A DNA stretch of 64,000 bases, taken from assembly GCA_036867785.1 (NCBI GenBank), contig CP145411.1, forward strand, positions 930,001 through 994,000, read 5' to 3'. Of the stretch, positions 29,803-57,605 are shown one piece after another. How positions within the stretch are numbered: position 1 is the stretch's first letter; every line of letters begins with the position of its first letter. The DNA comes from Plasmodiophora brassicae. Its lineage: Eukaryota. The position numbers and the translations under genes were made by a program. The notes below the pieces were generated by a model, which made no database searches, was not told the origin of the DNA, and saw nothing but the letters and a program-made list of their open reading frames with translations.

Positions 29803-30043
29803 GGGCGCGTCGGCCGCGGCCAAATGGTCGTCCACGGCGCCGCCCAGAACCCGGATTCGGTGCAGGTTGTCCCCGTCACCCGCTCCCGTGGACACGGGCC
29901 TCCCTCCAGCCAGTCCCAAGCAGGCGTCCTTATGTTACGGGGTCCTGTTGACCATTGTCAAAACACGACGTCTTACTGCGTGCCTCGGGTTTCGCGGAAG
30001 CACTGCGCGACGCTGCCCCCGCCTGTCCCCGTGGCGGCGCAGA

Positions 30044-30179
30044 CTCTGCCCAGTCGGCGCTGCAGCGGGGGCGTTGACTGTGCCCAGTCGGTGCTGCAGC
30101 GGGGGCGTTGACTGTGCCCAGTCGGCGCTGCAGCGGGGGCGTTGACTGTGCCCAGTCGGCGCTGCAGCCGGGGGCGCTG
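30044..30179. repeat. Minisatellite, 4 x 34-bp head-to-tail units (CTGTGCCCAGTCGGCGCTGCAGCGGGGGCGTTGA)
   Basis: Units begin at 30044, 30078, 30112 and 30146 with few mismatches and no spacers. Confidence 0.95.
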
Positions 30180-30465
30180 CCTTATCGTCCGTGTCGTGTG
30201 CTCGCAACGTACGCTGGTGACGTGTGGGGTCGGGGTCGCTGGTTAGGACGCGATCCTCATGGAGGGACGGCGTACCTCGCACGTGCCGGCATGCCTGTGC
30301 AGATGGTCGGGTCCCCGTCTGGTGCGGTGCCGTCGCGGGCAGCGGATCCTGCGGGTGACGATTCGGTGGGGTCCGTCGTAGAGTCGGGCCGATGAAGAGA
30401 TATGGGGTCGGGGGGTACAGTGTGATCGAAGTTTGGGATCTCGACAAGGGTGGCGGCCAGCGGCA

Positions 30466-33400
30466 ATGGCCGCCGTCAGCAACGGGAGCGGCCGCTTTGG
30501 AAACTCCCGCATGGCCATGTCCATGGCGGGACATCATCTCGCCTATGGCGACGAGCTCCTGCGGCTGGGCGCTTACCGTGCCGCCCAGGCGCATTTCGTC
30601 GAGGCCAGCAGCCTGATCGATGCCGCCTCCGATGCCAAGGTCGTGTCCCCCGTGGCCGACGTGATCGCCGACCAGGCGGTCGTCGACGAAGTCGGCAGCA
30701 GCGCCGCCAGTGACGACGACGATGACGATATCGAAGACGACGTCGGCGCAGTGACCCAGGAGCGATGCCTGGCGTCGATCGCGGAATCCAGGAAACGGTT
30801 TACGTTCGAACGTCGCAACCTGGCCGCCCTGATCGCCCTGGATCGCGGGCGCGGCCGTGCCGCCTCGCAGATCATCGACGACATCCTGCAGCAGCCGATC
30901 CTGGACGACGACACGCGGCAGTACTACCAGAGCAAACGCGTTCGCGCCAATCGGATCGCGGCCGACCAGGACCAGGTCCAGGACGCCATCGCCATCGCGG
31001 ACGCGGTCGCCGCCCGGGCCACGACGTACGCCGCCGCCGGCCTCGACACGTTGTCGATCACAGCGTGGCGCCTGGCCGCCCAGGTCTGCTCGGACGCCCT
31101 GGCGTCCACCAAGACGCCGACGCCACGTATCAGCATCGGCCAGGCGCCCGTCACCGACGCGGGCAGGAGCCGCCTGATGGCCATCCAGCAGGACGCCATG
31201 GCGCAGGCGCGCCGTGCCTCGGCGGCGGTGGCGTCGACGTTGCCGGCGGCGATGCTGGGCGACCTCGTCGACGCGTTCGTGGAGCGGCAACGACACCAGT
31301 GCGAGGATATCGGGGCGCTGCTCGCCGACCAGGACACGCCCGAGGCCGACCGCGACGCGCTGATACGCCCGTCGCAGGTCGGCGACATCACGATCGACGG
31401 GAAGCTGTGGGCGGCGCGCCAGGCGGCCGTCATCGTCGACATGCTGGCGCCGGGGCGCGCGTCCGCCATCCTGGACGACGTCGCGCTCCACGAGCAGCAT
31501 CGCGCGCTGATCCTGGATCGGCGTCGAGGCGCGGCGCGGCACCAGATCGAGGGCAAGTTCGACCAGGTCGTCAAGGACCTGGACCAGGCGAACGGGGCCC
31601 CGTCGCGACGCGCCCACGTTGTCCATGACCTCCTGTCGACGGTGGCCAGCGCGTACCGCGACCCTCGCGACCTGCACCTGCTGTCCACGGCGAACCTGTC
31701 GGCCAGCGTCGCCCGTTTCAACGATGCGATCGCCGCCGAACGCGCCGCCGACGAACGCCAAGCGGCTGCCATGGCGGCGTTCGTCGAGGGCGCCGATCGG
31801 CACCTGCGACGCGCGCTCGCAGCGGCGTCGACGTGGCCGTCGGACAAGGTCGTCGCCAGGGCGCGCCAGGCGTCGTCGTTGTACGAGCGCGCGCGACAGT
31901 CGCCGGCCTGGCGGGCGCGCGCCGAACGCGGCCTGCTGCGATCGTCGCAGCTGCAGGAGGCGATCCGGTGCCGGGACGAAGCCGCCCGGTGCGGCGCCGG
32001 CGACCGGGAACGCGCGCTGCGCTGGGCGATGCGAGCGGCCGTGACGATCGGCGACGCCCTGGGCGCCATGCAGGGCGTCGACCAGGCGGCCGACGCCCTG
32101 GTCGTGCAATCGCGCGCCCGGGCCAACCTGGCCGCCGCGGTCACCGCCCTGGATGCCCTGATCCCGACCGGCGCGTCCGACGACGAGCGCCGCGTCGGCG
32201 CGCTGATCGGCAGGGCGCGCGACCTCGACCCGTCCGACGCCGTCATCGGCGCCTGGAGCAGGGCGTTCCGCCTGTGCCAGGAAGGGATGTCGGCGCGCGC
32301 CTCCAGGGACTACAAGCGCGCCAAAGCGATCTTTGACGAGTGCAACGAGCTGGCGCCGTCGGAGGCGTTCCGGCGCGCCGGCCAGGAGGCCGACAACCTG
32401 GCGTACAAGGCGGAGCTGCGAGCGGCCACTGAACGATTGGCGGCGCACGCGACGGCGCCGGGCACGCTGGGCCCGATGCCGGTCAACCTGTCGAGCCGGA
32501 TCTCGGCGACGCGGATCGAGTCGCTCGTCGACGGCGTCGTCGGCGACATCCTGGACGGGGACGACCCCGATCGGGCCGACTACAGGGAGGCGATCGTGTC
32601 GGTCCTGCAGGCGCACCCGCTGTTCGACGATGGCGAGATCTGGAACGACGACGAGCTGGCCGACCTGCGACGGGCGCTCGTCGACGCCGTCGCGAAGGTC
32701 CTCGGGCACACGATGGCCGACGTCGAGGTCGTCGTCCACCAGGCCGCCGACGAGCGCCAGCTCATGCGCCAGGCGACGTTATCGCCCAGGTCGCGAGCGA
32801 TGGCCCAGGACGACCTGGTTCGTCGGGCGTCGATGCGCCTGACGGCCAGGGCGATGCGGGTCGCCGCCGACATCGGCGCCACTGAGCTGCACCTCGAGCA
32901 CAACATGTTCCGATGCCTTCGACGACGCATCCTGGCCTGCCAGGCACTCGTCGACCGGTTCGCCGACGTCGACGCCATGGTCGACGCCGGCACCTGGATC
33001 GGCCGGCAACTGGACGCTCGATGGTTCCCCGAGGTCGAGGCGTCCAGCGGCACCGACGACGTCGGCGTTGTCGTCGCGTCCGGGTCCGTTGATCTCGAGC
33101 AGGACCTGAACGACAACGACAGCACGAACGACGACCTGATTGCCGACGAGGTCATCGCCGCCTGGCAGGCGCACGACGACGCGGTACGCGGCAGCGACGA
33201 GAACGCTTGGCGCAGCGCATTCGCCGACCTCGTGCACCGGTCGGGGGTCATTGCCCAGCGGCTCGTCGACGAGCCGATGACGAGCCTCCTGCACGCCCGC
33301 ATCAAACACCATCGCGCCGAGACGACACAGCGACTGGCGAGCGCCGCCGACAAGACCTCGCAGGTTGACCTGATCGCGATGGAGACCGTTGCAGGTGCGC

Positions 33401-34458
33401 TCCTCGACCTGATCTCGCTTCGGGTGCGTGCTCGCCTGCAGGAGCTGAACGTGGCGGCGCGCTCGGCACGCGCAGCGTTCCCCATGGCGCTTCGCGACCG
33501 CCTGACGAACCTGACGCGTACGCTGCCGGCGGAGCGGGACCCCGCCCCCGTCCTGTCCCTAAAGAACGTCGTCCGCGACATAGTGAGCGTCGTCGAGCAC
33601 AACCCGATCGACACGGTTGACGTCTGGCGGGTCTCGATCGCATTGGCGTTCGACGCCGTTGCCCTGCCGACGCCGTCGTCGTGCAGCGACGAAGTGATTG
33701 TCGAAGCGGCCACGACGATAACGTCGCAGATGTACACGGCGCGGGTCGTGTCGTCGTCGGCGCCGCCGCTGGAGAACCAGGACCAGTTCGAGCGACGGGC
33801 GAACCGTGTCCTGCTTCGTCATTTCAGCAGCGAGCACAGCGACGTCGTCGAGCGGGTGCGGGAACGACCCCGCCACGTGTTCGCAATCTGCAAGGACATG
33901 GTCGGCAAGATCGCAACGAACGATGCCCGTCATCGGGAGCCGAGTCCGACGTCCGCATCCATGACGTCGATTTCGTCAAACGACCCGGCGACGACAGCGA
34001 AGAGCGCGTCGTCCGGGACGTCGAAGTCAGTGTCGGGTGGCAAGCAACAGCAACGTCACCAGCAGCAGCAGCAGCTGCAGCAAGAACAGCTACCATCGCA
34101 GCAGCAGCAAGCGTTCACAAAGGACCTGCTGATTGTGATCAGGAAGCTGGTTGCCATGCGGGTCGTTCCTCTGGACGCGAACTCCAAGACGAAGCAGGCC
34201 ATGTCGGCCTGGATTGACGATATCCTGACGAGATCGCTGTCGGCCGGGTCGCATGCGCGTTTCCTGAACAGCCTGGCGCTGCAGACGCAGAGAGCCAGCG
34301 ACCATGCCAAAACCGAGCTGGCCGACCGGATCGCCGGCGCCCTGCGCGCGTTCCCCATCGACGACGTCGTCAACGGCAAGGACGCGCCCCTGCAGGCCGA
34401 CGCCATGGCTGCGGTCAGAAAGGCGATCACCGACTGTAAGAACAATCTCAGACACTAA
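30466..34458 (+). CDS. Large single-exon Ala/Asp-rich helical (TPR-like) protein, ~1,330 aa, with polyQ tract
   Basis: Uninterrupted 4-kb ORF with strong GC3 codon bias; TPR-like segments (GDELLRLGAYRAAQAHFVEAS; GMSARASRDYKRAKAIFDECNELAPS). Start codon uncertain. Confidence 0.8.
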   Translation: MAAVSNGSGRFGNSRMAMSMAGHHLAYGDELLRLGAYRAAQAHFVEASSLIDAASDAKVVSPVADVIADQAVVDEVGSSAASDDDDDDIEDDVGAVTQERCLASIAESRKRFTFERRNLAALIALDRGRGRAASQIIDDILQQPILDDDTRQYYQSKRVRANRIAADQDQVQDAIAIADAVAARATTYAAAGLDTLSITAWRLAAQVCSDALASTKTPTPRISIGQAPVTDAGRSRLMAIQQDAMAQARRASAAVASTLPAAMLGDLVDAFVERQRHQCEDIGALLADQDTPEADRDALIRPSQVGDITIDGKLWAARQAAVIVDMLAPGRASAILDDVALHEQHRALILDRRRGAARHQIEGKFDQVVKDLDQANGAPSRRAHVVHDLLSTVASAYRDPRDLHLLSTANLSASVARFNDAIAAERAADERQAAAMAAFVEGADRHLRRALAAASTWPSDKVVARARQASSLYERARQSPAWRARAERGLLRSSQLQEAIRCRDEAARCGAGDRERALRWAMRAAVTIGDALGAMQGVDQAADALVVQSRARANLAAAVTALDALIPTGASDDERRVGALIGRARDLDPSDAVIGAWSRAFRLCQEGMSARASRDYKRAKAIFDECNELAPSEAFRRAGQEADNLAYKAELRAATERLAAHATAPGTLGPMPVNLSSRISATRIESLVDGVVGDILDGDDPDRADYREAIVSVLQAHPLFDDGEIWNDDELADLRRALVDAVAKVLGHTMADVEVVVHQAADERQLMRQATLSPRSRAMAQDDLVRRASMRLTARAMRVAADIGATELHLEHNMFRCLRRRILACQALVDRFADVDAMVDAGTWIGRQLDARWFPEVEASSGTDDVGVVVASGSVDLEQDLNDNDSTNDDLIADEVIAAWQAHDDAVRGSDENAWRSAFADLVHRSGVIAQRLVDEPMTSLLHARIKHHRAETTQRLASAADKTSQVDLIAMETVAGALLDLISLRVRARLQELNVAARSARAAFPMALRDRLTNLTRTLPAERDPAPVLSLKNVVRDIVSVVEHNPIDTVDVWRVSIALAFDAVALPTPSSCSDEVIVEAATTITSQMYTARVVSSSAPPLENQDQFERRANRVLLRHFSSEHSDVVERVRERPRHVFAICKDMVGKIATNDARHREPSPTSASMTSISSNDPATTAKSASSGTSKSVSGGKQQQRHQQQQQLQQEQLPSQQQQAFTKDLLIVIRKLVAMRVVPLDANSKTKQAMSAWIDDILTRSLSAGSHARFLNSLALQTQRASDHAKTELADRIAGALRAFPIDDVVNGKDAPLQADAMAAVRKAITDCKNNLRH

Positions 34459-34750: not shown

Positions 34751-35715
34751 GTCGTCATTCGCTCAACTATAATGTAAAAATCTACAAAACTGCATGCACA
34801 TCGCCACATCGCATTCGTCCCATCGATCGCCGGTGGAACACTGGTAACTGAGAGGGCGCGCCGTGGGCCTAATGTCGCTGACGGAGACGAATCCCAGCTA
34901 GTTTGGCTGTTCAGTCCCCGAGTGCAGGTCGTGGAATGCAGAAGGCCTTGGATGAGGGCCACAGCTTCGCACAGGCAGTGGTGTTTCTTTGAACCATGAT
35001 AAAGGGACGGCAGCGGCATGTCGTCCCTCGGGGGGCCAAGGCCTCGCATTGCGACACATATTGCGATGCGTGAGAGAACGATCGACACAGAAGGCTCTTG
35101 GCAGTAGGTACGCCGCCAACACGATAGCGTAGGGGGAACGTTCGCTGAACGTTCAAACGCTTAAAGCCGCTGTCCTATAATGCGCTTATCTATTCGTGTT
35201 GATAGGATGCCGGGTGCTGCCGCTGTTCCAGACGACACTATCGTCTAAGGTCGGCACCGGTTGCATGTTCATCTGCGCTGGGACTGTTTGGGGACGCCGG
35301 CACGACGCGATAATGCTTCCTCGCCCTCCAGGCCAACGATTGCGATCAACGACAGCACCATGGGCTCGCCAGCGCCGGTTTGCAGACAGACACCGAGCAC
35401 GATTGGTTCGATACTGGGCATTTGCCGGCTTCCTCAGATCAGCGAGCCCCCACCCCTAGCGGTCGGTGTCCCCGTCATGGGCCTTGACACGGTCGACAGC
35501 GGGAACAAGCAACGACTGCAACGGCTACCGGTTGGTAAAGCCGGTCGCGTCGTCTTGTTCGCCGCCGAGGTAGACCACGACGCAGCGGCACGGGCTGGAA
35601 AGCGGAAGCATGGCGGTCCATTCGGCATCGGGCGGCATGGCATGCCACTGCCAGTGGCACAGTGCAGTGGCAGGCTGGGGTCCCCAACGCCGCTATTCTT
35701 GACGGCGCCGGTTGC

Positions 35716-38475
35716 ATGCGACGCCTGTGGCCACGGTTAGGCGGCAGCGGGCGCGTCGTCTGTGTCGGCAGGACCCCGCCGCCGCCCTGCCGATTCGCCC
35801 AGCGTCGTCGCTATGAGAGCGTGGTCGCGTCGGACGAGTCGGCGCCGGCGAGCGCTCCCGGTGGCCGATACCCGCAGTACAACGAGGACACGGACGTCGC
35901 CGCCGTCCTCAGGAGATACGATATGAACGCGGATCAGCTGGCGTACATCGTCCTTCACTCGCTGAGCAGGCAGACAAGCCGTCCGAATCATCGCGAGGAG
36001 CTCGACGCCGTCGTTGCCCGTCTTCAATGCTGCGACCTGTCGGCGATATCGTTGCGGACGGCGTCCACGCTGCTGTCCTGCATTGCCAAGTACGACCCAT
36101 GGCATCGGCCGGCGTTCACCGAAGTCCTGCATGCCTTGTCGTCCGCCCTGCCCGGCATTATCGAACGCGGGCCAGTCGACGCGAGGTATCTGGCTAATTC
36201 GGCGCATTCCATCGCGAAGCTGGCCTTCTCCGGCATTGACGTCGACGGTCTCCTGGACGTCATCAGCCAGGTCGCACGGCAGACCATCGGCGAGTTCGAT
36301 CCGCACAGCCTGTCGAGCCTGGCCTGGGCGTTCGCCACGGTCGGCATCGAAGACGTCCCGCTGTTCAACGCGATCGCCGAGGCCGCGGTGCACCGCCTGG
36401 AAGAGTTCACGCCGCAGTCCATCTCGAACATGGTCTGGGCGTTCGCCACGGCTCGCGTCAAGGCCGACGGCCTGTTCGACGCCCTCGGCAACGCTGCGCT
36501 GAACAAGTTGCCCGAGTTCGAACCCCAGGCCGTATCGAATACGCTGTGGGCGTTTGCGTCCGCGGGCGTCCGCTCTCAACCGCTGTTTGACGCCGCTGCC
36601 CGCGTCGCCGCCCGGCAGATTAACAAGTACAAGCCACAGAACATATCCATCACGATGTGGACATTTGCCAAATCGAAGATCACGTCGCCGGCGCTGTTCG
36701 CGGCCGTCTCTAAGGCTGCCATCCGACGCCTGGACGATTTCCAGCCGAACGAACTGTCCAACCTCGTCTGGGCGTTCACCAAAGTCGGCGAGATCGGCGA
36801 CCGCACCCTGTTCGATGCTGTCGTAACGTCACCATCGGTCACCGCCAGCTTGGCGAAGTTCCCGCCGCAAGCGCTGTCGAACACGGTCTGGGCTCTGGCC
36901 AGTGCTGGCGTCTCAAGTGACGCGTTCTTCAGCGCTGTGGCCGAGGCGGCTCTCCCGCAGATGACCGCGTTCGGCCAGCAGGAATTATCGAACCTCGTCT
37001 GGGCGTTTGCAAAGGCGGGCGTGTCGTCCCCATCGCTGTTCGATGCGGTTGCCAGGAGCGTCAGCGTCCAGTCGGATACGTTCGGCGCCCAAGCCTTGTC
37101 GACGATCGCTTGGGCGTTCGCCAAAGTGGGTGTTGTCCCCGAGACAATGTTTCAGGCGATTGCTGGGTCGGCCGTCGCTCGAATCGACGAATTCAACGCA
37201 CGCGATATTTCGAACATCACCTGGGCGTTCGCCAAAGGCGATTTCCTATCCGAACCGCTGTTCGACGCCGTTGCCGTCCGCTGCCGGTCCTGTCTGCACG
37301 AATTCACGCCCCAGGGCGTATCCAACGTCGTCTGGGCATACGCCACCTCCGGGATCGCCCATCGCGACCTATTTGACCTGTTCGCCGAGGCGGTCGCCCA
37401 CCGCGTCGGCGAATTCGACCCGCGAGCGCTGTCGAATACGGCATGGGCGTACGCTGCCGCCGGCGTTCCTCCTGATGGCGTTTTCGATGCCATCGCCATT
37501 GCAGCGGCTGAGAAGATCAAGGGGTTCGCTCCGCTGGAGGTCGCCAACCTGGTCTGGGCGTTTGCGACGGCGGAGGTCCTCGCGCCATCCCTGTTTGAGC
37601 GTGCCGCTGCGTTCGTGAGCGCCCGTGTTCCCGAGTTCGACAGCAGGGAACTGGCCATGATCCTCTGGTCCTTCTCCATGTTCAACATTGTGCCGGACCG
37701 GTTATTCGGGCGAGTGACACGTCAGCTCGTCACCCATGCAAGTGATTTCGCGCCCGGTGACCGGTGCATGATCCTGTACTCGATGGCCGCCGTCAAGCAC
37801 CCTCAGAAGGAGATCGTCGAGAACGCCGCCCAGGTTCTCGCCGGTTTGGACGAACTGTCGGACGAGACCAGCCTGTCCCAAATCCACGTTTGGCGATTGT
37901 CGTTAAGCGACAGCGAGAAAGCGATCGGGTTATCATCGTATCCTGACGCGGGACCGCTGTTCGCGAAATGTCTCGATGCGTTCCGCTGTCAACGCGCTCG
38001 AAAATCGAACCTCATCTCCAGCGTTAAGTCGGCGATGAAGAAGGTCGGCCTGTTGCCACTTTTCATGGCCGACACGAGGTGCCAGGCCAGTGCCTACCGG
38101 CTGCATTTCGCGTACGACGGCAAGGCCTGGGGGAAGATGGCCATCGAGGTGATGGGCCCAGGCAGGTTCATCGGGCGCTCCTCGCTGATGAACTCGCGAT
38201 CCCGTTTGCGACGACGAATCCTGCGGGCGTACGGCTGGAACATTATCGAGATCAACTACTTCGACTGGGACCGCCTGGCCACCGATGAGGAACGCGTCGC
38301 CTTCGTCCAGAGCAAGATCGACAAGATCCTGTCGTTCATCACGTCCGTCCCGGAGGGTTATCAACCATCGATCCTGACGCCCGAGGACCACATGCAATTC
38401 CGAAGGCGGACGAGTTACGTCCTGCCAAGGAAGAACAGCAAGCTGCCTCGGAATGAAGCGATCCACGAAGACTAA
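35716..38475 (+). CDS. Heptatricopeptide-repeat (37-aa HPR/FASTK-like) protein with C-terminal RAP domain, probably mitochondrial
   Basis: About 13 clear 37-aa repeats F.PQ.LSN.vWAFA..G....LF.A.A; RAP motif AIEVMGP.RF...RLRRRILRAYGWNIIEINYFDW; Arg-rich, acid-free N-terminus. Confidence 0.9.
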   Translation: MRRLWPRLGGSGRVVCVGRTPPPPCRFAQRRRYESVVASDESAPASAPGGRYPQYNEDTDVAAVLRRYDMNADQLAYIVLHSLSRQTSRPNHREELDAVVARLQCCDLSAISLRTASTLLSCIAKYDPWHRPAFTEVLHALSSALPGIIERGPVDARYLANSAHSIAKLAFSGIDVDGLLDVISQVARQTIGEFDPHSLSSLAWAFATVGIEDVPLFNAIAEAAVHRLEEFTPQSISNMVWAFATARVKADGLFDALGNAALNKLPEFEPQAVSNTLWAFASAGVRSQPLFDAAARVAARQINKYKPQNISITMWTFAKSKITSPALFAAVSKAAIRRLDDFQPNELSNLVWAFTKVGEIGDRTLFDAVVTSPSVTASLAKFPPQALSNTVWALASAGVSSDAFFSAVAEAALPQMTAFGQQELSNLVWAFAKAGVSSPSLFDAVARSVSVQSDTFGAQALSTIAWAFAKVGVVPETMFQAIAGSAVARIDEFNARDISNITWAFAKGDFLSEPLFDAVAVRCRSCLHEFTPQGVSNVVWAYATSGIAHRDLFDLFAEAVAHRVGEFDPRALSNTAWAYAAAGVPPDGVFDAIAIAAAEKIKGFAPLEVANLVWAFATAEVLAPSLFERAAAFVSARVPEFDSRELAMILWSFSMFNIVPDRLFGRVTRQLVTHASDFAPGDRCMILYSMAAVKHPQKEIVENAAQVLAGLDELSDETSLSQIHVWRLSLSDSEKAIGLSSYPDAGPLFAKCLDAFRCQRARKSNLISSVKSAMKKVGLLPLFMADTRCQASAYRLHFAYDGKAWGKMAIEVMGPGRFIGRSSLMNSRSRLRRRILRAYGWNIIEINYFDWDRLATDEERVAFVQSKIDKILSFITSVPEGYQPSILTPEDHMQFRRRTSYVLPRKNSKLPRNEAIHED

Positions 38476-40790: not shown

Positions 40791-42159
40791 TTATGTCAGG
40801 TGCTGAGCGGGTGCCGATGAACGACGTGCAGGTGGAGTAGGCACCGCGGAACTGCCTGTACGAGTCTGGCCGCGACCCTTGACGGAAACAGCGACGGCAG
40901 TCCCAGCGACTGCTGCAATGGCCAGCGCCTTAATCCATGGTATCTTGGGGACGCCGCCCTGCTTCTTCTTGAGGATAGCAGACCATTTCCTGTCAACAGC
41001 CGTCTTCGCTATCATGCCGAGGCCTCCTAAGAAGACAACTGGAAGAGCGGTTTGCAGCGCCGTGCCCAGGGAAACAGCAGGTCGTGGACGACGAGAAGCA
41101 GAACGACTCTCAGAGGACTCTGATGGATCTGCAGTCTGCGTCGTAATGATCGACGAGACTGGATGGCGACTGTGGCCAGCGGGATTGTTCTCGAGACTCT
41201 GTCTTGCGATAGGACGACGCCCGCGGGTTGCTTCAGCGCGCTCTGCGGAACCCGGCGATGTCAGATGCGGAAGATGAGCGTTGCCGTTGTACACGAAGAC
41301 CCTCGTTGTAGATCCGGGTCGTCTGGCGATCGGGACGGGACTCGCCTGGACCGCAGTCGATTCGGACGTGACGCCGACCCCAGCAGTGGGGAACCATTGC
41401 TTGAGCCATACATCAGGCCGGCGCGAATCAAAGAGAACCGTGCTCGTGTCCAGCACTTCCCGGAAGTAGAACCAGAAGGCATCCACAGCACCACTCAGGG
41501 CCTCGTTACGGGCGAGGTCCCACACACTGCCGTCCATGACGGACAACGACCCATGGTACAGGTTGATGTCGGCCAGAAGGCGCTTGAGGTGCGCCCGTAA
41601 TGACGAGTCCAGCGGGATATCTGGCAGGCTGTCCACATTGCTGGGCGTCGTCACGAAGACCAGCGTGGATTCGGTGTTCAACAGTCCTCTCGACAACGCC
41701 AGCTCCTCGTGCACCAGGTTGAGCTCCTCGATGGACGCCAGGATGACAGACACGCCCGGCCTGCCGTTCCCGCCACCCTGTTGAGCGCGAACAATGACCT
41801 GGAATGGCGTCTTCCGGTACAAACTGACCGCATCCGCCTCCTGATGCGAGCTATACGACCGAGTCTGACGGAAGCGATCCGTCACGAAGATGTCGGGGTG
41901 GATCATTCTGTCCACACCCTGCGGAACCGGAACCTTCATGTTCCGGGCGCGTCCACGAACGGCGTCGCGGACGATGTCGTTCAGGCGCCGCAACTTGCGA
42001 CAAAACAAGTCACTTCGAACCTGATCCAGGAATTCATCGCGGTACAAAGACAGATCGGTCCGCTGCGGCGATGGATCAGAAACGTCAGCATCCTACACGT
42101 CAGGTCAGTTAATTGTGATCCTCAAGTGGAACACGCAGCCCGACACAACCTGTTCCTGT

Positions 42160-42199
<40 letters not shown>

Positions 42200-45100
42200 C
42201 CTCTTGTTGCTGCTCCTGGACCTGTTCGCGCCCTTCGTCGAACGGCGCGCTATCAGGGCACTGCTCGTCGGCCAACGGGAACCCGGCAATGATGGTATCG
42301 ATCGCGTCCCGAAGCCCGCTGCGTTCGTCCCGCGAGAATATCGTCGACACGCGGTCGCTGTTGAGCAGCGCGTCTCGGCGCCCGTCCAGCAGCGACCGCA
42401 TCGGCACCACCGCATCGTCGTGCGTGACCTGATCCAGGAACGTCTCGACCTGCGATCGGCTGAATAACGACCACGCCACGGCGTCGCTATCGTCAGCGAC
42501 GGCGTTGGCCAGCGTTTCGAATTCTCGGGACGGCACCGACACCGTGTACATCTTGGTGAGCATCGCGTCCCGGACGACGTCGTCGATCTTCTGGAAGACG
42601 CTCTGCCGGCTCTGCTTGCGCTCCTGCTGGAACTGGACCAGCTGTGCATTACGAAGCATGGCGGTGACGTCGAGCATCGCGTCCAACGTCACGAACTCGA
42701 CGGTCTGTGTGGTGAGGAACTTTCGCATCCGCATGACGCCCTGGAGGACGTCGCGCAACGGCGTGTCGGCGCTGATGGTGACGAGGCCATTGGCATCGGG
42801 TCGCTGTGGGATGTCGGCCCCGGTGATGTGCCGATGGTCATAGTAGGTGAAGACGGCAGCAGGACCGCTGACGGGCGAATGCCCCGTTATCGATTCGATC
42901 GTGGCGGCGTCCGTCCCAGGCAGTGCCCGGTCGTCAACGGCACCGCTGCGCCTCCTGATCAGTGCACGAGGCTGGTTCGTGGCTTCGTCGTAGAAGACGA
43001 CGACCTGGATACCAGCGTGGTGATGCAGCAGGTCGCCCGCGACCACCACATTACGAACACCTTTGAAATGCGCGCCAACATCAATCAGGGCACTTGTCGA
43101 CGACGTCATTGTCGACGCTTGCAGTGCACGAACAGCAAGCGGATCGGAACCGTCTGGAACACGATGCACGTCCAGGCCCAGGCCCAGGATGCGACTGATG
43201 ACCTGGCCGTTGGCGCCCTCGTCCAGGACGATACCGTGTGGGGCGCTGTAGACCCGGTCCGGGAAGATGAACCGGTTCTCGAGCGTGCCGGAATACCCTT
43301 GCAGCGACTGGAACATGGACCCGAGGTTCTGCACGTTGCCCGTCGTCTGACGCGAGTCCACCTTGGCGTTGTTCAGGATCTGCTCCCGGACAAAGTCCAT
43401 CAGCATGGCCTGCACTTCGGGACTGCGGGAACGAAGGGCGCCTTGCACCAGGTCAGCGTGTCGGTCAGGGTCGGCATGTGATAATCGGAGACTGCCAGAC
43501 GTCAGCGTGTTGAAACGTCGGCCAATGTCGCTGCTGTCTGGGTCCACACACTGTTTCGCCCCGTCCTTGCACCAGCTGATGTAGGCCTTGGCCTGCTCCC
43601 GGTCCACGCCGCTGTGCAAGTACAGGATCGCTCCACGGTTGATGATTTCCCATTGGCTGGCGATGTGGCTGGTGTCGCTGGGCGTGTTCGCCGCCACGTA
43701 CGGGCGTGGAAGCGGGTCGGTGCCGTCGTTGGCCCGGCCGTAGTGCTGGTTGACGTTACCTTGCAGGGCAAACGGCACCTTGCGATGCAACTGGACATGC
43801 GCGTACGCCAGGTGCTCCTTGCAGGCGGGCGTCAGGTCATCGTTCGACAACACGTCCGACGCCTGAGCGCCTGTCGATTTCAGGAACAGCGGGAGCGAGT
43901 TGAGGACACGCCCGGGGCAGGCCCGAGTCCATTCGGTCGACCCGGCGATGTAGTCGGCGGCCCACTCGATGAGGCGCGGCCGTATCCTGCTGGCGTACGT
44001 TTCCGGGTCCACAGCGTGCGCGTGGGCCCGAAAGTCGACCAACCCCGAGGTCGACAGGTGCAGAAAGAGGTCGACAGCGAAACGAACGTGCATGCGATCG
44101 GGTCCGATGGCATCTCCAGACGGCAGGTTGTGTTCCAGTTTCGGGTCGAACGTCATGTCGACCTCGTCGAACGTCGCGGCACCGCGATCCTTCAGCAGGA
44201 GCAGGATCCGTCCCAGCCACCAGATCGACGCGTCATGCTGGTCGGTGCCGGGGAAACGGGACGCGAGATCGATGAACGTATTCTGCAGCATGTGCAAGGT
44301 ACGCGGCGCCATCAGCACGTACTGGTGGTTCCGGATGCAAACCAGCAGCGTCTCGTACAGAGCTTTCAATCGCCTGCACGTGCAGGTTAACAGTGCATCG
44401 GCACGACGTATACAGTGTCAATCACTTACTCCTCGGCGACATCCTCAGAGCGACGCCCGAACGTGATCACGCGTGCCCACTGGCCAAAGAATGCAGCGGA
44501 TCGGGCGGTCATATCGCCCGAGTTCTGCTCGAAGAGGGACGCGGGCGGCACCATGAGCGACAGATGGTACCCGTCGGCCTTCGCCAGCGCCAGCATTGTC
44601 CCGAGGACGAACGTCTTGCCGGCGGCCATCAGGCGCTGCAGAATCATCGAACGGAACGACGACGACCCTGCCGGTCTGGTCAGCAGGTGGAGAATGTCGT
44701 GGAACTGATCCGATCGCAGGCGCATGCCGGCCTCGAGCTCGAACACGACGATCATCGGGTGCGATACGATCTGGTCGAAGGCTTCCCGATCCACACGGGT
44801 CTTGGCCAGCTCGGCGGCAGCGCCCTGCACGTCGTCCACCTGGGCATACCGCTTGATGCGGAGGCAGTGCTGCCTGATGGTTACCAGGAGGACATGACGG
44901 AGCAAGGCGCCATGCAGGTGCCTGATGACCGCTTCGTTGTTCCGCATCGTCGGGAACCGTGCCGCGTACAACTTTGGCGACGCCGTTGCCAGCAGATGCA
45001 GCAGCGACTGATATTCGAACTGGTCGCCATCGCCCAGCCCTTCCGCGAACCATTCGTGACGACGACCAGGAGCACCATTGCGAATGATGTCTCTTATCGA

Positions 45101-48100
45101 GTCCTCGCTTGCTGCAATGGAGGCGTCGAGTTCACCCACGATGCTGTTCAGGACGGCAACGAGGCCTTCCATTGGTGCACGAAGATGGTATGCCGTCCGG
45201 AGGTCCTGGAGGCGAACGGCGCCGCGCCGCGTCTCATCAGCGACTTCTTCCGACCGCCTCCGTTCGAACTCGGGAACATCCGTCAGCTGGAGTGACGAAA
45301 CGTCTTCCGTGGGCGCATGGAGCGACGGCACGTTCCGCTGAAGCGCGGCGTTCATCGCCTGGCGAAGTCGGGTCTCGAGCAGGCTGACCACGTGGAACAG
45401 GGCGGCGACGGCGTCTTCGGTGGGGTGAACAATATCCGGGATGGCCGATGGAAGACCCTCGTCGATGCGATCGACGAACCTGTGCGGGATCGCAGGCATC
45501 CTAAACGCGTTGCGCAAGTTCGAGACGACGATCCCGCCTGCATGATGCACACGGCCCAGAGCCTTTTCGACGGGGCGCCATACCTGCCTGTCGGAGTCCA
45601 TGCCATGTAGGCGCTGGTCCGGGGCGAGCACGAAGGTCGGGTCGGCCTCCCAAACGAGGTCGTCATGGTCCGACCCAGCGCAGCTGGAGAACGCCACAGG
45701 CACGCCAGCCAAGATGTGCTCGTAGAAGACGACGCGGTGGCATCGGGGCGAACCAGATTGAGATTCGAACACGTCGAACGAGGTGAAGCCGTCCGGGGCC
45801 GTTAGAGTCGTACGGTCAACGAGGGCGAAGGCGCGACCATGTTTCGCATGGAACGATGTCGTTGCCGATGAGTCGGCGAACTCGTACACTACGGGGGTAG
45901 GCAATGACGTGCGGGTATAGTCATCAAGGTTTCGGGAGCATCTCGCGACAGGGCGGAGGAGGTCATCGGTGACGAGAGCGACGCTTGGAGAGGACGACAA
46001 TGTTGGGATTTGGTGCCAGAAAAACTTGGCTTTGACGGCACGGTCGACATCAATATCGCCCAGTACAACTCTCACGAATGCTTTGTCCAGGTCAGATGTT
46101 TCTGGATTCATCAGTGAGGTCCTGTCCAATCTGTACCGACCGACGACCGTGTGCAGGACGACCGCCGTCGGGCTGGTCTCGCGCAGGCGACGATAATTGT
46201 CGCTGGGCATCTGGATGATCAACTTGGTCCAGAACGCACGCGACGACGGGGACGGCATGACAGAATAGGTAGGCGGGTTGTCGTACTCCTTTCCGATGGT
46301 GATGGACGGATCCAGGCCGATCCGCAATCGGGACACGAGGAACGGATGCTGGTGCATGTCGGCGGTCCTGACCGCGAACTCACCCAGCACCGCTCCGTCC
46401 GCCGTTTGACAACGAACCTCAGCCGACATCAGATCAAACGAGCAGGTGCCCTGCGGGCCCGACGCGAAGCATGACGGCTGGAGGCCGTCCACACAGGTCC
46501 AACGCAAGGACGAGGCCAGCTCGATCAGCCTGCGTTCGGCGTCATCGCTGCGGCCGACGGCAGCCACCTCGACTCGACGTCGTTCGCGAAGGTCGTGCAG
46601 GACGTCCCAGAGATCAGTGCTGGTTGCCATCGGGTGCAGGTAGGCGACGATCTGGCCGGACTTCTGCGCCATGAACAGGTCGGCCTGATGGCGAATATGA
46701 CGGTAGGCGGGGGCGATGCCCGAATCCACGTCGTCGTCGCGGAGGACGTCCAGACGCCGGGCCTGACGTGCGACCAGGTCCTTGAGCCAGTCGCGGTCAC
46801 GCCCATCCTGGCAATCGTCGTCGACTGCGCTGGCGATGATGATGACGGCATGCGCCAGGGATCGTATCACTGGTGAGGCCCAGACGTCGCGCCCGCTCTG
46901 CGAGTCGATGCGGTCCTCGAGCTCTCGACGGAGGTCGCGACGGGCGCGGCACTCCGCGTCGGACGCAGGCCGGAACGATCGGACGCGAAACGTCAATGCG
47001 TACAGCCAGAGAATGGTACGTTGGTCACGAGCCGTTGCCGGTGCGATCCGACGCATGGCAGTCTGGGCCTCCTGCAACACCGCATCGATAAGCGGGGACC
47101 GTTGCAGGCACAGCTCCTGGAGCCCGCCGTTGACGTTGACTGGTCCTTGGAACAGGGCGAAGTCGATGACGTCCTGATGCGTGTAGTTGGTGACGTCCAG
47201 GTGGCCGGATTGCCAGGCGAACAGCAACGACGGGATCCGCGTCCGCTCGCGAAACATTGTCGATAGGGTCACCCGGTGGCCAATCGTCTGCCGGCTGACC
47301 AAGAAGTCGTTCTCCTCATAGTGTCTTGAAGAACGCGCCAAGCCGATCGCGGCGTGTATGACGGGCCATCGAGAAGTAGGAGACTGACTCTTGCTGCTGC
47401 TGCCCCGCCTTCCAACCATACTTCGTGGTTTCAGAAACGAGTTTCCGGACGGCCGTGTCACAGATTCATAGGCAGTACTATACGGAAGGGATTTCAGATC
47501 ATCAATCCCCGAACTAGTACGGTTCAGATCAGGCGTGTCGTTCTCAGGTTGCTTGCTGACTTCGATCGGGCATTGAAAGTCTTCCCGAAGATCGCGAATC
47601 GTAAGGCGGCCCCAGTTGTACGATGTCGTTGTACCGTCCCACAGATACACCAGATCCATGAGCCTTTTCACGACGAACTGAGAAAGGCTCCCCGAAAAGG
47701 GCGGCACAGGCGTCGTTGCCTCGCCTAGAGCATTGCGCAAGCGATCCATGACAAGTAGGCCATAGACCACGCAGGGAATGTCCAGGCTTCGGAATTTCGT
47801 CTGCACATTTCGGGGCATAAACGCGATCATGGCATCTCGAGTCAATTTGTGTTGTGTCGTGATCCGAGTGGCGATCTGCAAAAGCCACTGCCGAAACGAC
47901 GTCGGGTTCGTCGTCAGGCTTCGCATGGCAAAGTCCAGCGGCAATGCCTTCGGGTCGCACGAATCGGAATGGAACTTTAACGCCTCGAACATATCGTCGA
48001 GCTGGTCAATGAGGGACCGATCGTAGGACAGGAGGTACTTGGAGTGGCGCAGACGGCACAGCATGTGGTTCGACATCCGGAAAGAGCTGAGCAAAGGGAC

Positions 48101-50014
48101 TGATCCGCGATCTGTCACCAGTGAGTCCAGTCGACAGGTCACGCGCCACATCATGATGAGGAGCTTGTTCCGGGCCAATACACTGTCCCAGTGCTGCTCG
48201 TTGCCGGTCATGAAGTCCAAGGAATGGACAAGACTCTTGATGCTGTCGGCCAGTGTGCCCGCATCCTCGCCCGACATCGTCGAATAATGTTCGGCATGCA
48301 GAGCATGCCCGGGGATAGAGAGGATCGTCGCGATTAATGCATCCTTACAAGCCGGCGAGGCAGTCTTCTTCTTGATCAACGTCAACAATGTCTGCAACGA
48401 TTGCACAGTCCCCGTCGGCTTAGAGAAATCGATGCGGATCGAAACTTCGGGAGGCTTGGCGACAACGCTTGTAGCTGGCTGAAGGCCAATATCACCGTAA
48501 TCGACGAGGAACGGCGATTCAGGATAGTTGACCATCTCATTCGACAATCGCAACTTTTTGATGGCGAATGGCATCGGGATGCCCTCCACCAATGCCTTCA
48601 CTTTGTCGAAAGCACGCTTGAACGCGACGTCGTTGAAGAGTAGGCCGCCGTCACCAAGGTCATGGTTGGGCGCATCGGTGCTCAGTTTCATTTGGCGACG
48701 AGCCACGTTTCGCGCCACCGTCCGCAGAATAAACAGCCACGTATGCGGGTCGCCGATCGCGTCGTCGTCGTGACCAAGTAGGCGCGATGTCATCACGTCC
48801 ACGGCGGCTCGCTGAAGGTCCTCCTTGACGAGGCGAAACTTCTCATCCCCCAGCGTCACATGCAGGTAGGCCAGCTGCGATTTCATAGTGCACGTTCCCG
48901 ACTGTTGGAACCTCATTGAGGGTTTCTTGATCGACCCGTCGTGATACCTGTGAAGCGGCTGCAAGATTCGCTGATAGATGTCGTCGGGGCCGTATTGTTG
49001 AGACCCAGTTGGAACCAGCTCCCTGGGGCCAGTCATCATGGAGAATAGGTGGAACAGGACGTCCAGGGTGTGCAGCAGTGCACCAGAGGGAACATTGACG
49101 AATTTCACAATGGGGACAACGTTAACGCGATCCAAGTATTTGACGAAGGCGTGCGCACCAGACGATCCGGCGCCCGCGTTGAAAATGGAGACCTCTAGCT
49201 TGTTTGTTGCACCATCATAGAGTATCTCCATAAGCATCGCGTGGCCACTGTTGGTCGACCTCCACCCCACTGGCACGACCACTTTCTTGGATACAGCCAG
49301 GAACGTTTTGGCGAGCTCGGCAAGGAACAGCGCGTTCCCGTCGACGCTGTCGCCATGATTCATCGAACCAGCGAACAAGGCGGCGATGCCAAGTTGGCGG
49401 TGCTGGTCCTCGACGTCCCACTTGTGAAGAACCTTAGACAGCAATGTGTGCATGAAGTAAAGTGCGTCTGGATACACGAAGCCGTCGATTCCTAATGAAG
49501 ACGCCCATGCATCACCGAAGAAATTGGCAACTGGGGCCATCAGCGCGTTCGGCGGGAGGCGTTCGACAGCGGGATCGCCACGAGTTGCGTCCAAGATCTC
49601 TGAAAACAAACGAAACCTTGGATCATTGGGCGCGTTGATAGGGCCAGAACAGGGAATGCCATGAAACCGGTACACGACGAACGCGGCACAGGCGGTGTGC
49701 ATGGCCGATACTTCTCGGTCGTCACTTGTGATTGTTACCAGTCGTAGCATATCATTGGCATGGGCACAAAACTCTCCGTCCGGAAGTCGTGCCGCGATTC
49801 TGCTGAGCGTCAGGAGCAGGCATCGGCGCTTACGAATATCTTTGACGCCAGCCAGGGCCGGCGGGAGTGCGTCCAGGGACGATGCAAGCGGTACGCCGAT
49901 CTCGGTCCGGATCGGGTCGTCAACGTCGAATGAGGTGGAACAGGCTTGACTCAAATCCCAAGGTGCGGACAGGGACAACGGTAAGAGCGCGCCCACAAGG
50001 ACGGCGACGAGCAT
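40791..50014 (-). CDS. Giant (~3,036 aa) signal-peptide protein: CE-clan-like cysteine protease motifs, DUF3638/DUF3645-type SF2-like ATPase, poly(QE), C-terminal hydrophobic helices
   Basis: Three exons joined in frame by GT-AG introns 44374-44429 and 42093-42149. MLVAVLVGALLPLSLSA; GW....GHAML / IFNAGAG / QQSGTC; QRLMAAGKT, DEVD, PYVAANTPS, GYSGT, ALIDVGA, YYDHRHITGADI, LQGVMRMRK. Confidence 0.88.
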
Positions 50015-50318
50015 GCTAATGGACTTCACTACTGAAAGCTCTATAGATCTGGCACAGAATGTGGCTTCGATCTGAAGGTCAACAGCTGTGTCTGGGCGTT
50101 CAGATTAATTCCTGAGTGATCGATTTCCGGAAGTCCGTGCGGACATTCAGCGACTGTTCAACGCTTTCTGGCCCGACACGCTGACTGAAAAGTGCGTGTT
50201 TTGTGCCAGCGAGTTCGCCTCGTGACGACAGCAGGCGAACGGCAGTGCCGCGGACCGCGCGTCAACTACAAAGAATACCGTCCCCCTTTGAACGAGGAAT
50301 ACAGTATGTACATAGGTA

Positions 50319-50849: not shown

Positions 50850-52570
50850 CTAGCGCGCGTGTCCGCGTTGGACGTTCTCGATCATCGCAAAGGGCTGGCG
50901 ACCGGGAAGTCGCCGCAGGCCTGCGCATCTCTCATCCTTTGTTGCCATGAAGCGGCACAAACGCCTTGCACGTTCACGATTATTCGAACTGCGGGTAACT
51001 GGAGAAGGCGCCCCGCTGCGATGCTTCAGCTTAGCAGATGACGTATCGTCTGCGCAAACTCAGGTAGTTCATCGTGATGTTCCGGCGCTTCGTCCTCGAA
51101 TGGCCAGGCACTGGGGTTTGGTGCCGGATTATTGACGTGCCGGGTCCAGTCAGTCACGCTTTTGAAGCGTCGGACAGAGTCGGCGTTAATGTCTGATGCG
51201 GCACCGTGCCGACCGGCGCAAACGGCTGCGTTAACAGCAGGTCCCGCCAGAAACGGGCATCCCGCATCCGCGACATGTCGGCCACGGGTCTCCTCGCAGC
51301 CGGTCAGGCCGGCCTGTCCAGATCGTTCACGAAGGCGTAAGCTGCCGCTTTCCAGGACGGCCACGACGGGTGCAAGACCCCCATGGGTGCGATTGTCGCG
51401 GCCGTTACGGGTGCCTGTCGACGACGCCGTGGCTGATGCTGCTGCGTCGATGACGTCGAGCAACTCGTGACAGGATCGGCGGTGATCAGATCGGGCGTAT
51501 GAACGGCAGCGAGCGGGCCAAGTTAGTCGCCCTTACCGGCCACCAGCAGGACGGGCGCCGACGCGATGGTGCCCATCTCGTTCGGGGCAGCGATCTCGGC
51601 ATGTGATTCTACGAACGCGGTGACCGCCGGCGACACCACCCGAGCAGGTATAATGTGGGAGGGGCGGCCTCGCTTGCAGGTCGGATGACGTGCTGGTTCT
51701 CCGAGCGGTTCCTGGCACGACCTCGGCTGACCAGAGGTCGATCGCGTCAACGGAGACACCCAGGCCGCCCGCAGGCATCGCGAACACGCGCCACCACCAG
51801 ATGCTCAGCCCCGGTCGTCTGGGTGTGTAGGGCTCTTCAAGAACGCCCAGCGGTTCAAAAGCGCCGTTATCAGGACGCGGGCGATGGGCTTGGAAAGCGT
51901 CGGCGCCCTTGCAAAGAGCAGGTCGCAGAACCGGACCAGCTGGGACGTATCGTGATGGGCGGCGCCGCTGCTGATGCGGAGCGATGGGGCCACATCGCCC
52001 GCCTTGGGTGCGTTGCGCCCCGCCGTCGTGCACGCGCCAATGTAGTTGGCGAACACGTCGTTGGCCGGCAGGTGGTGCTCATCGGCGGTACGCGCGCGCG
52101 CCCAGCCGTCCCGGTACGCACGAGCAGTGGGCGACGCGCCGTACTTCTCGGTGCCGACAGCTGCTGAATGATGACCTGGCCGTTGGCGCCCTCGTCCAGG
52201 ACGATACCGTGTGGGGCCCTGTAGACCCGGTCCGGGAAGATAAATCGGTTCTCGAGCGTCCCGGAATACCCTTGAAGCGGGTGGAACATGGGCCCGAGGT
52301 TCCGCACGTTCCCCGGCATCTGACGCAAGTCCACTTTGGCATTGTTCAGGATGTGCTCCCGGACAATGTCCATCAGGGAAAGAAGGGCAAGTTGCACCAG
52401 ATCAGCTTGTCATTCAGGGTCGGCATGTGGTAATTGGAGTTCGTCCACCATCAGCGTGCTGAAACGCCGGCCAACGTCGCTGCTGTCTGGGTCCACCCAC
52501 TGTTTCGCCCCGTCCTTGCACCAGCGGATGTAGGCGTTGGCCTGCTCCAGGTCCACGCCGCTGTGCAAAA
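50850..52570 (-). pseudogene. Fragmented paralogue of the giant 40791-50014 gene
   Basis: 52165-52570 closely matches 43195-43620 (QGYSGTLENRFIFPDRVY.APHGIVLDEGANGQV; LHSGVD.EQA.AYI.WCKDGAKQ.VDPDSSD) with frameshifts. 50850-52050 shows only weak, broken similarity to ~44800-45700. Confidence 0.8.
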
Positions 52571-52714
52571 CAGGAAAGCACAAGGAGAGGCGATCCGACA
52601 AAAGCTGGATAGCCATATCGAAGGCAGTCAAGGATGAACACATCTGCATCGTCAACGACAGGACGCGACACTGCAGTCGATTGAACGATCTGTCAGTCTG
52701 TAGCATATGTGAGT

Positions 52715-57182: not shown

Positions 57183-57549
57183 TCAGGCAGCGACCTGCTC
57201 TGGTGTCGCTTCGTTCTCGCATTCGCTCTTGGCGGCCGCGTCTTGTGCGGCGCTCTCCTCCTCATCCGCCACTTTGACTTTCTTGACCGCGTCATTCTCG
57301 TCGGCGTCACAGACAGACTTCCGCTTCGTCAGCACACCTTCATCGTTGGCCGCGTCACCAGACTCCTCTGCAGCATCCTCCGTCGGCGCCTGCTCGGCCT
57401 CCTCTTTCTGCTCCTCTGCCCGATCTTCGTCTTTGACCTGCTGCTGCTGTTGCTGCTGCTCTTCCTGAGCCTGCTCCTGTTCCTGAGCCTGCTCCTGTTC
57501 CTGATCCTTCTGCTGCATGTCCTGCTCCTGCTGCTGCTGCGTCTCCTCT

Positions 57550-57580
<31 letters not shown>

Positions 57581-57605
57581 CTTGTTGTTCGGCGACGTTC
57601 ACCAT
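57183..57605 (-). CDS. Small acidic Gln/Glu-rich disordered protein with a bipartite-NLS-like motif
   Basis: 140-aa ORF with polyQ/QE tracts and KRKS...KKVK. Confidence 0.7.

Follow-up and report, generated by a model that had tools for sequence, protein, structure and literature searches.

Gene structure and layout at the locus

The window analyzed here is a 64,000-nucleotide stretch of the Plasmodiophora brassicae genome (assembly GCA_036867785.1, contig CP145411.1, positions 930,001 to 994,000 of the forward strand); all coordinates below are positions within it. It carries a minus-strand gene of three exons (50014..40791) whose coding sequence of 9,111 nucleotides (nt) specifies a protein of 3,036 amino acids (aa), ~330 kDa in size. 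From the N terminus to the C terminus, the predicted protein comprises a signal-like peptide, a cysteine-protease-like domain, ~1,250 family-specific and mostly unassigned residues, and a tandem-RecA ATPase core, which is followed by a glutamine/glutamate (Q/E) linker, a family-shared C-terminal domain, and one or two predicted membrane-anchoring segments. An earlier note, made from the sequence of the window, had described the gene as a candidate effector of new architecture that joined a CE-clan-like protease to an SF2-like ATPase.

The gene joins three head-to-tail minus-strand open reading frames (ORFs; 44426..50104, 42105..44417, and 40791..42092) in frame through two GT..AG introns (Table 1). 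Transcript evidence came from the assembled contigs of four runs from four studies, whose type (RNA) was guessed, as the spliced joints suggest. Intron 1 was spliced out exactly (44373..44428/44374..44429) in contigs of all four runs. For intron 2, contigs of three of the four (X1, X4, and X10) jump from 42092/42094 to the last part of exon 2, which they carry as its reverse complement. The alignment with a full-length paralogue, P0005 (PBTT_03154; 3,253 aa, 25 to 41% identical), also continues through both introns. Thus, the gene model and the two introns of the earlier note agree with the transcripts. The start codon is the ATG at 50014, the first after an in-frame TAA at 50105-50107, and there is no further ATG within 50014-50117. 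No upstream exon that might replace the signal-like start was seen in the transcript contigs; one contig that extends to 50117 covers the in-frame TAA with neither another ATG nor a joint. The gene is intact, transcribed, and spliced.

Table 1. Features of the P. brassicae gene and of the adjacent paralogue fragment (positions within the window)
Feature	Position	Strand	Residues	Remarks
Exon 1	44430..50014	-	1-1861 + 2 bases of codon 1862	Contigs span it up to 50117
Intron 1	44374..44429	-		56 nt, GTAAGT..CAG; absent from contigs in 4/4 runs
Exon 2	42150..44373	-		Remainder of ATPase core; last part is the Q/E tract
Intron 2	42093..42149	-		57 nt, GTTGTG..TAG; in-frame TGA inside
Exon 3	40791..42092	-		Family-shared C-terminal domain, Ser/Arg stretch of low complexity, both C-terminal hydrophobic segments, and the stop
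Signal-like peptide	49967..50014	-	1-16	MLVAVLVGALLPLSLS then AP; hydropathy heuristic
Cysteine-protease-like domain + helical cap	48575..49567	-	150-480	Predicted
H258	49241-49243	-	258	Invariant in family alignments
N279	49178-49180	-	279	Invariant in family alignments
Q370	48905-48907	-	370	Invariant in family alignments
C375	48890-48892	-	375	Invariant in family alignments
SF2-type tandem-RecA core	42639..44767	-	~1750-2440	Predicted; split by intron 1
Walker A, AAGKT	44612-44626	-	1797	Motif I
DEVD	44157-44168	-	1931	Motif II (Walker B)
YSGT	43284-43295	-	GYSGT at 2221	Motif III
ITGADI	42807-42824	-	2379	Motif V
QGVMRMR	42723-42743	-	2406	Motif VI
Q/E tract	42150..42218	-	2581-2603
C-terminal hydrophobic segment 1	41007..41063	-	2947-2965	Weak, KD (Kyte-Doolittle) 1.61
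C-terminal hydrophobic segment 2	40881..40943	-	2987-3007	KD 1.84; basic residues after
Paralogue pseudogene fragment	52128..52575	-		~440 nt; in-frame stop and deletion

Two predicted catalytic domains

Five residues of the cysteine-protease-like N-terminal domain (N-domain), H258, N279, Q370, G373, and C375, did not vary in family alignments of 48 and 24 rows. Of the 150 best family representatives, 56 also had the region of residues ~240-400. The AlphaFold2 model of residues 150-480 had a predicted local distance difference test (pLDDT) score of 83.7 and a predicted template modeling (pTM) score of 0.85, and it placed the His within a strand and the Cys where a helix begins. When the model was compared with the Protein Data Bank (PDB) by Foldseek, the top seven matches were all Legionella pneumophila AnkD, LegA15, or AnkH (E values of 1e-4 to 1e-3); the next had an E value of 0.06. 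A PDB sequence search with the single N-domain returned chance matches only, to antibody constant domains, and the Pfam peptidase families had no match among the three exons. These results support the designation of the domain as a CE-type, cysteine-protease-like domain, in the sense of a predicted fold that matches AnkD/AnkH and an invariant His-Asn-Gln-Cys pattern. A fusion of VTD deubiquitinases to DUF3638 was also considered and dropped; the available text of the VTD paper (PMC9741609) contains none of the terms "DUF," "P-loop," or "ATPase."

The ATPase core has motifs I, II, III, V, and VI, all intact, in order, and aligned with those of relatives, and an insert of ~290 residues separates DEVD from YSGT. 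The helicase-like motifs that the earlier note listed (AAGKT, DEVD, SGT, and QGVMRMR) were all found where it had placed them, and the Q/E tract that it named was also found. Because intron 1 splits the P. brassicae core, the fold was modeled on a relative that has the whole core, P0047 (934 aa), with 34 other rows that included both P. brassicae pieces. The model (pLDDT, 89.1; pTM, 0.87) had a chiefly helical inserted domain. Its Foldseek matches at ranks 1 to 5 were all SecA (best E value, 2.3e-7), and DinG, RIG-I, Dicer, RapA, and DdmD followed. The superposition with SecA extended to residue 880 of the model, and the lead of SecA over DinG and other helicases of superfamily 2 (SF2) was small for the motor alone. 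With hhalign, the core profile had a probability of 0.4% against Escherichia coli SecA and of no more than 1.8% against each of the controls RhlE, DinG, RapA, and RecQ. Therefore, sequence cannot separate SecA from other SF2 proteins. Pfam SecA families had no match on the P. brassicae exons. The ordered motifs and the model of the relative, which did fold as two RecA-like domains, support the SF2-like tandem-RecA core that had been proposed, and the SecA link of the core is to be taken as a lead only.

Family, secretory signals, and gene copies

A search with exon 2 recovered 1,554 cluster representatives at an E value of ≤1e-3, mostly proteins of 3,000 to 4,700 aa that matched at residues ~2,000 to 3,000. 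Exon 1 by itself scored 25.3 bits with Pfam DUF3638 (PF12340), against a cutoff of 31, over profile positions 7-109 of 225; the rest of the match is cut by intron 1. The cutoff was exceeded by 7 of the 14 relatives scanned, and exon 2 matched P0007, P0008, P0010, P0012, and P0013, which score 36 to 54 bits for DUF3638, at E values of 1e-64 to 1e-70. Because the subthreshold Pfam score is accompanied by such strong homology to relatives that pass the cutoff, the P. brassicae protein is, by homology, a divergent member of the giant DUF3638 family. DUF3645 (PF12359, a 33-residue model) had no match on exon 2 even at an E value of ≤10, and the paralogue P0005 scored 20.2 bits for it, below the cutoff of 25. 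Thus, of the DUF3638/DUF3645 match claimed previously, kinship with DUF3638 stands and DUF3645 finds no Pfam match. We hold the family membership and the domain identities with high confidence.

The arrangement of an N-domain followed by the ATPase is shared by 56 of the 150 best-matching family members and by chlamydial giant ORFs. The earlier note was right on the domains and wrong on novelty: the supposedly new effector architecture is a layout common to giant proteins of protists and chlamydiae.

The N terminus of the protein, in which the Kyte-Doolittle hydrophobic stretch covers residues 1-19, has a hydrophobic core of 10 residues and small residues at -3/-1. A signal-like start and/or a C-terminal transmembrane segment (TM) was flagged in 23 of 113 full-length rows, and 90 rows had neither. 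In a FastTree tree of the core, 20 of the 23 flagged rows fell within one 30-row clade (support, 97 to 98), and outside it 3 of 83 rows were flagged. N-terminal and C-terminal features occurred together in 10 rows, clustered in this clade, which includes the P. brassicae protein, P0005, two Chromera velia proteins, and one transcriptome protein. Because the flagged rows concentrate in this clade, the signal and anchor appear to have been inherited within the clade and not to have arisen newly in this gene. The signal-like peptide and C-terminal hydrophobic helices that the earlier note had pointed out are therefore present by hydropathy, but they are not special to the gene.

Most of the flagged relatives have a single strong TM, then Lys/Arg, and a short acidic tail, a type I pattern that is clear in proteins such as P0005, P0010, P0033, and P0042. 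These relatives have the look of type I membrane proteins with a large exoplasmic body, and the P. brassicae protein is more likely to be anchored than freely secreted. A Pfam match of its C-terminal hydrophobic region to DUF4235 was at chance level (E value, 0.024). At the position of the Q/E tract, the family consensus is likewise acidic and Q/E rich. Elsewhere in the window, a GAG/CAG-type repeat at 57470-57586 is 73 to 81% identical to the DNA that codes for the Q/E tract (42149-42227). Three metagenome members of the clade (P0028, P0036, and P0051) were found in many samples on contigs of ~16.2 or 17.1 kb, a recurrence that may point to full-length transcripts or to a complete element of small size.

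The relatives in intracellular bacteria that had been claimed earlier were also found. A pattern scan of the genomes of 185,579 prokaryotic species yielded 11 loci, a lower bound given that a single peptide pattern was used; 10 were in chlamydial metagenome-assembled genomes (MAGs) and one was in an unclassified bacterium. The 11 loci (L005-L015), for which the chlamydial MAGs are environmental, have uninterrupted family ORFs of up to 3,764 aa, and 5 of the 11 carry both GHA and Q-x-x-G-T/I-C motifs. In the core tree, all 11 lie outside the 30-row clade, and several are close or even identical to representatives in neighboring clades; for example, four chlamydial loci are identical over the core to P0023, P0052, P0061, and P0070. 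The outgroups nearest to the 30-row clade are from intracellular chlamydiae.

These results favor a reading of the protein, which we consider probable overall, as a DUF3638 giant with secretory signals that is held at a membrane with its body outside. The more specific placement, anchorage with an exoplasmic body, is favored only slightly. Several observations weigh against this reading. The signal and TM flags are hydropathy heuristics. The two C-terminal segments of the P. brassicae protein are weak and have basic residues on both sides, and therefore its anchor and orientation are less clear than those of its relatives. The clade includes the free-living alveolate C. velia, and therefore the design does not need a host cell. 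The core model is that of the relative P0047, which is 26 to 42% identical to the P. brassicae pieces. A 15-member family profile found no solved relative in the PDB, with two chance matches at E values of 0.1 to 0.2. Among the structural matches of the N-domain, AnkH was without protease activity in vitro in the available account (PMC6712400), and LegA15 is read as an atypical GTPase for which the Cys is needed and the His of the putative triad matters little, according to the accessible part of PMC9757750.

It is also possible, if rather unlikely, that the protein is an enzyme of the lumen of the parasite's own endomembranes (endoplasmic reticulum [ER], Golgi apparatus, or vacuole), with parasite proteins as substrates and no aim at the host. 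The presence of C. velia in the clade and the type I features of the relatives (a signal-like start, one TM, and Lys/Arg) fit such an enzyme, as do the existence of lumenal ATPases and the import of ATP into the ER lumen. Highly divergent and partly truncated copies or alleles, described below, would be unusual for a housekeeping enzyme, and both the position of intracellular chlamydiae as nearest outgroups and the large DUF3638 family of microsporidia, as far as the available text of PMC5423893 describes it, also argue against it.

A further alternative is that the hydrophobic N terminus is uncleaved and the protein is not secretory at all, being tail anchored or peripheral, so that the body would lie in the cytosol of the parasite. 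Such a location would be the family default, given the 90 of 113 full-length rows with neither feature, and the heuristic signal call and the weak TM segments are compatible with it. However, 10 rows show the N-terminal and C-terminal features together, the features concentrate in one clade, and the tails that follow the TM in relatives, up to ~80 residues long with Lys/Arg directly after the TM, fit a type I protein better than a tail anchor. In addition, no ATG precedes the one at 50014 in the transcript contig. We consider a cytosolic body improbable.

The copies of the gene bear on its possible role as an effector. Close database proteins, two in a search with exon 1, carried only P. brassicae names; a search with exon 2 that was limited to longer proteins returned three and added little. 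One of the close proteins, P0004 (1,466 aa), has 80% identity to residues 1-1470 in the form of a mosaic of 48 to 100% per 50 residues, with 48 to 84% over most of residues 1-900 and 96 to 100% over 901-1100 and 1201-1250. Such a mosaic would be expected if diverged copies had recombined or undergone gene conversion, and P0004 is compatible with a divergent allele as well as with a paralogue that has exchanged segments. Contigs of runs X10 and X14 break at 45587-45596, and the X14 contig has 911 other letters between the two sides. P0004 ends at 45605, coinciding with this break, which suggests that other isolates have a copy or allele that is truncated or bears an insertion. The mosaic identity, the strain differences, and the break agree with the fast divergence that had been supposed for the gene. 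The decayed paralogue said to lie beside it is represented by the fragment at 52128..52575, with its stop and deletion, which corresponds to residues 2114-2268 (70% identical at the amino acid level, and 84% at the nucleotide level to 43193..43627). This fragment is only ~0.44 kb long. A larger decayed copy within 50.1-60 kb was rejected; its tblastn matches had E values of 0.2 to 5, while a reversed-sequence control gave 24 matches down to an E value of 0.064.

According to the available part of a preprint, the DUF3638 protein PBTT_09600 is among the most polymorphic predicted effectors and belongs to a hypervariable chromosome (10.64898/2026.10.14.759018). No tie between PBTT_09600 and this locus was found. 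Pfam comparison of 32 neighboring ORFs indicated ordinary cellular genes (UBR4-like ligase, DnaJ, CH, C2/CBS, and FAST/RAP), and a link to the ankyrin-rich hypervariable chromosome, as far as the accessible preprint text describes it, was dropped, with no ankyrin or SKP1 in those ORFs. A soluble effector that is released and acts within the host cytosol, in line with the delivery to a host cytosol suggested in the earlier note, is a reading that we regard as improbable: it would suit the signal-like peptide, the strongly diverged copies or alleles, the strain differences with their 911-letter break, and the polymorphism of PBTT_09600, but the C-terminal hydrophobic segments are present as a clade trait, the protein is very large at ~330 kDa, C. 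velia has the same layout, and the neighbors are ordinary genes with no ankyrin cluster.

Other features of the window are recorded here as separate observations. The earlier note called the gene intron-poor relative to most neighbors; of two neighbors, the UBR4-like E3 ubiquitin ligase gene (3300-8657, plus strand) is in at least five ORF pieces with short intron-like gaps, and the FAST/RAP ORF (35539-38472) has no interruption. At its left end, the window has a gag-like ORF of a copia-type long terminal repeat retrotransposon (236-1504, minus strand; 25.8 bits, against a Pfam cutoff of 27). The region at 29938-34455, which is ~70% G+C, has overlapping very long ORFs of 1,358 aa (plus strand) and 947 aa (minus strand) with no Pfam match.

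Possible function and comparison with known systems

If the protein is a membrane-held giant with its body outside, then the signal peptide would direct entry into the secretory pathway, the C-terminal segment would retain the protein in the membrane, and the catalytic body of ~3,000 residues would come to lie on the exoplasmic (outer or lumenal) side. The plasmodium lies naked in the plant cell, and at the parasite surface the body would face the host cytoplasm with host ATP at hand. If the protein were instead kept in a lumen, such as that of the ER, its work would be for the parasite itself. The ER lumen also contains ATP, which is imported, and lumenal ATPases exist. Therefore, an ATPase with a signal peptide need not be one that is delivered to the host cytosol.

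The ATPase might grip or remodel a macromolecule, perhaps a polypeptide given the likeness to SecA, and the thiol hydrolase might cut or deconjugate the substrate that the ATPase handles. We regard this coupling of a motor and a hydrolase on protein substrates as a tentative proposal. A broader and far more speculative scenario, to which we give little weight, is that a clade of type I-anchored giants displays a SecA-like ATPase together with a CE-type thiol hydrolase at the external face of the cell membrane; that in plasmodiophorids, and perhaps microsporidia, host ATP drives the stripping or cutting of host protein conjugates; and that environmental chlamydiae have the same machine minus the signal and anchor.

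The DUF3638 giants are widespread, and to our knowledge no function has been assigned to them. The predicted domains provide handles for experiments: an N-terminal module that appears to share the fold of a Legionella effector domain and has a conserved Cys/His set, and a putative SF2 motor whose nearest solved shape is SecA, which handles polypeptides rather than nucleic acids. One eukaryotic clade of the family appears to have moved into the secretory pathway. For clubroot, the gene offers a large, expressed, strongly polymorphic candidate for a surface or secreted protein, with two predicted catalytic centers that could be assayed in vitro. A protein link among protists, chlamydiae, and Legionella is also relevant to how genes pass among intracellular organisms and their hosts. 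In the open literature, that is, outside subscription journals and supplements, no paper was found that describes the AnkD/AnkH-fold, SecA-shape, or secretory-clade links. Thus, as far as the literature was searched, three points are new: the AnkD/AnkH fold assigned to the N-domain, the likeness of the core to SecA in shape, and a eukaryotic clade with secretory signals among chlamydial relatives.

The closest structural counterparts of the N-domain are the Legionella proteins AnkD (PDB 7ew8), LegA15 (7kj6 and 7xql), and AnkH (6mca), in which the same order of His, Asn/Asp, and helix-start Cys is found. In the accessible text of PMC6712400, the AnkH motifs are given as rGHa, D/NRg, and GNCS, which resemble GHAM, NAG/NTG, and GTCS in the N-domain of the DUF3638 family. 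Some family members (P0008 and P0013) also have ankyrin repeats, which lie upstream of the N-domain. In contrast, the P. brassicae protein has no sequence-level match to these effectors and no ankyrin repeats by Pfam on its exons. The Legionella proteins are of ~450 aa and have no ATPase, whereas the P. brassicae protein is a giant that has one.

The same available text relates the AnkH domain to clan CE, and its authors superposed the domain on XopD (PMC6712400). Clan CE (Ulp1/SENP, XopD, and adenain, as well as the YopJ-type acetyltransferases) shares with the P. brassicae N-domain the order His, Asp/Asn, Gln, Cys, with the Gln five residues before the Cys. The likeness to clan CE proteases is one of remote fold only.

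For the ATPase, E. coli SecA and the P. brassicae core share a DEVD Walker B motif, a motif III of the form G-x-[ST]-G-T, and a large insertion that separates motif II from motif III. An insert at this position is also found in DinG/XPD-type helicases. The likeness to SecA has no sequence-profile support, and the fold of the core is known here from the model of a relative.

Among other intracellular eukaryotic parasites, microsporidia have a large gene family with a DUF3638 domain, reported in a survey in which families were defined as enriched in signal peptides or TMs (available parts of PMC5423893). The comparison, made by legend and text, offers a suggestive parallel to the P. brassicae protein.

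Also among the closest known systems are the giant DUF3638/DUF3645 proteins themselves, which, like the P. brassicae protein, are of ~3,000 aa, have the ATPase at about residue 2,000 with GKT and DEVD motifs, and have an N-terminal domain with His/Asn/Gln/Cys. A signal-like peptide and a C-terminal TM are absent from most of the family, whereas the clade of the P. brassicae protein has both.

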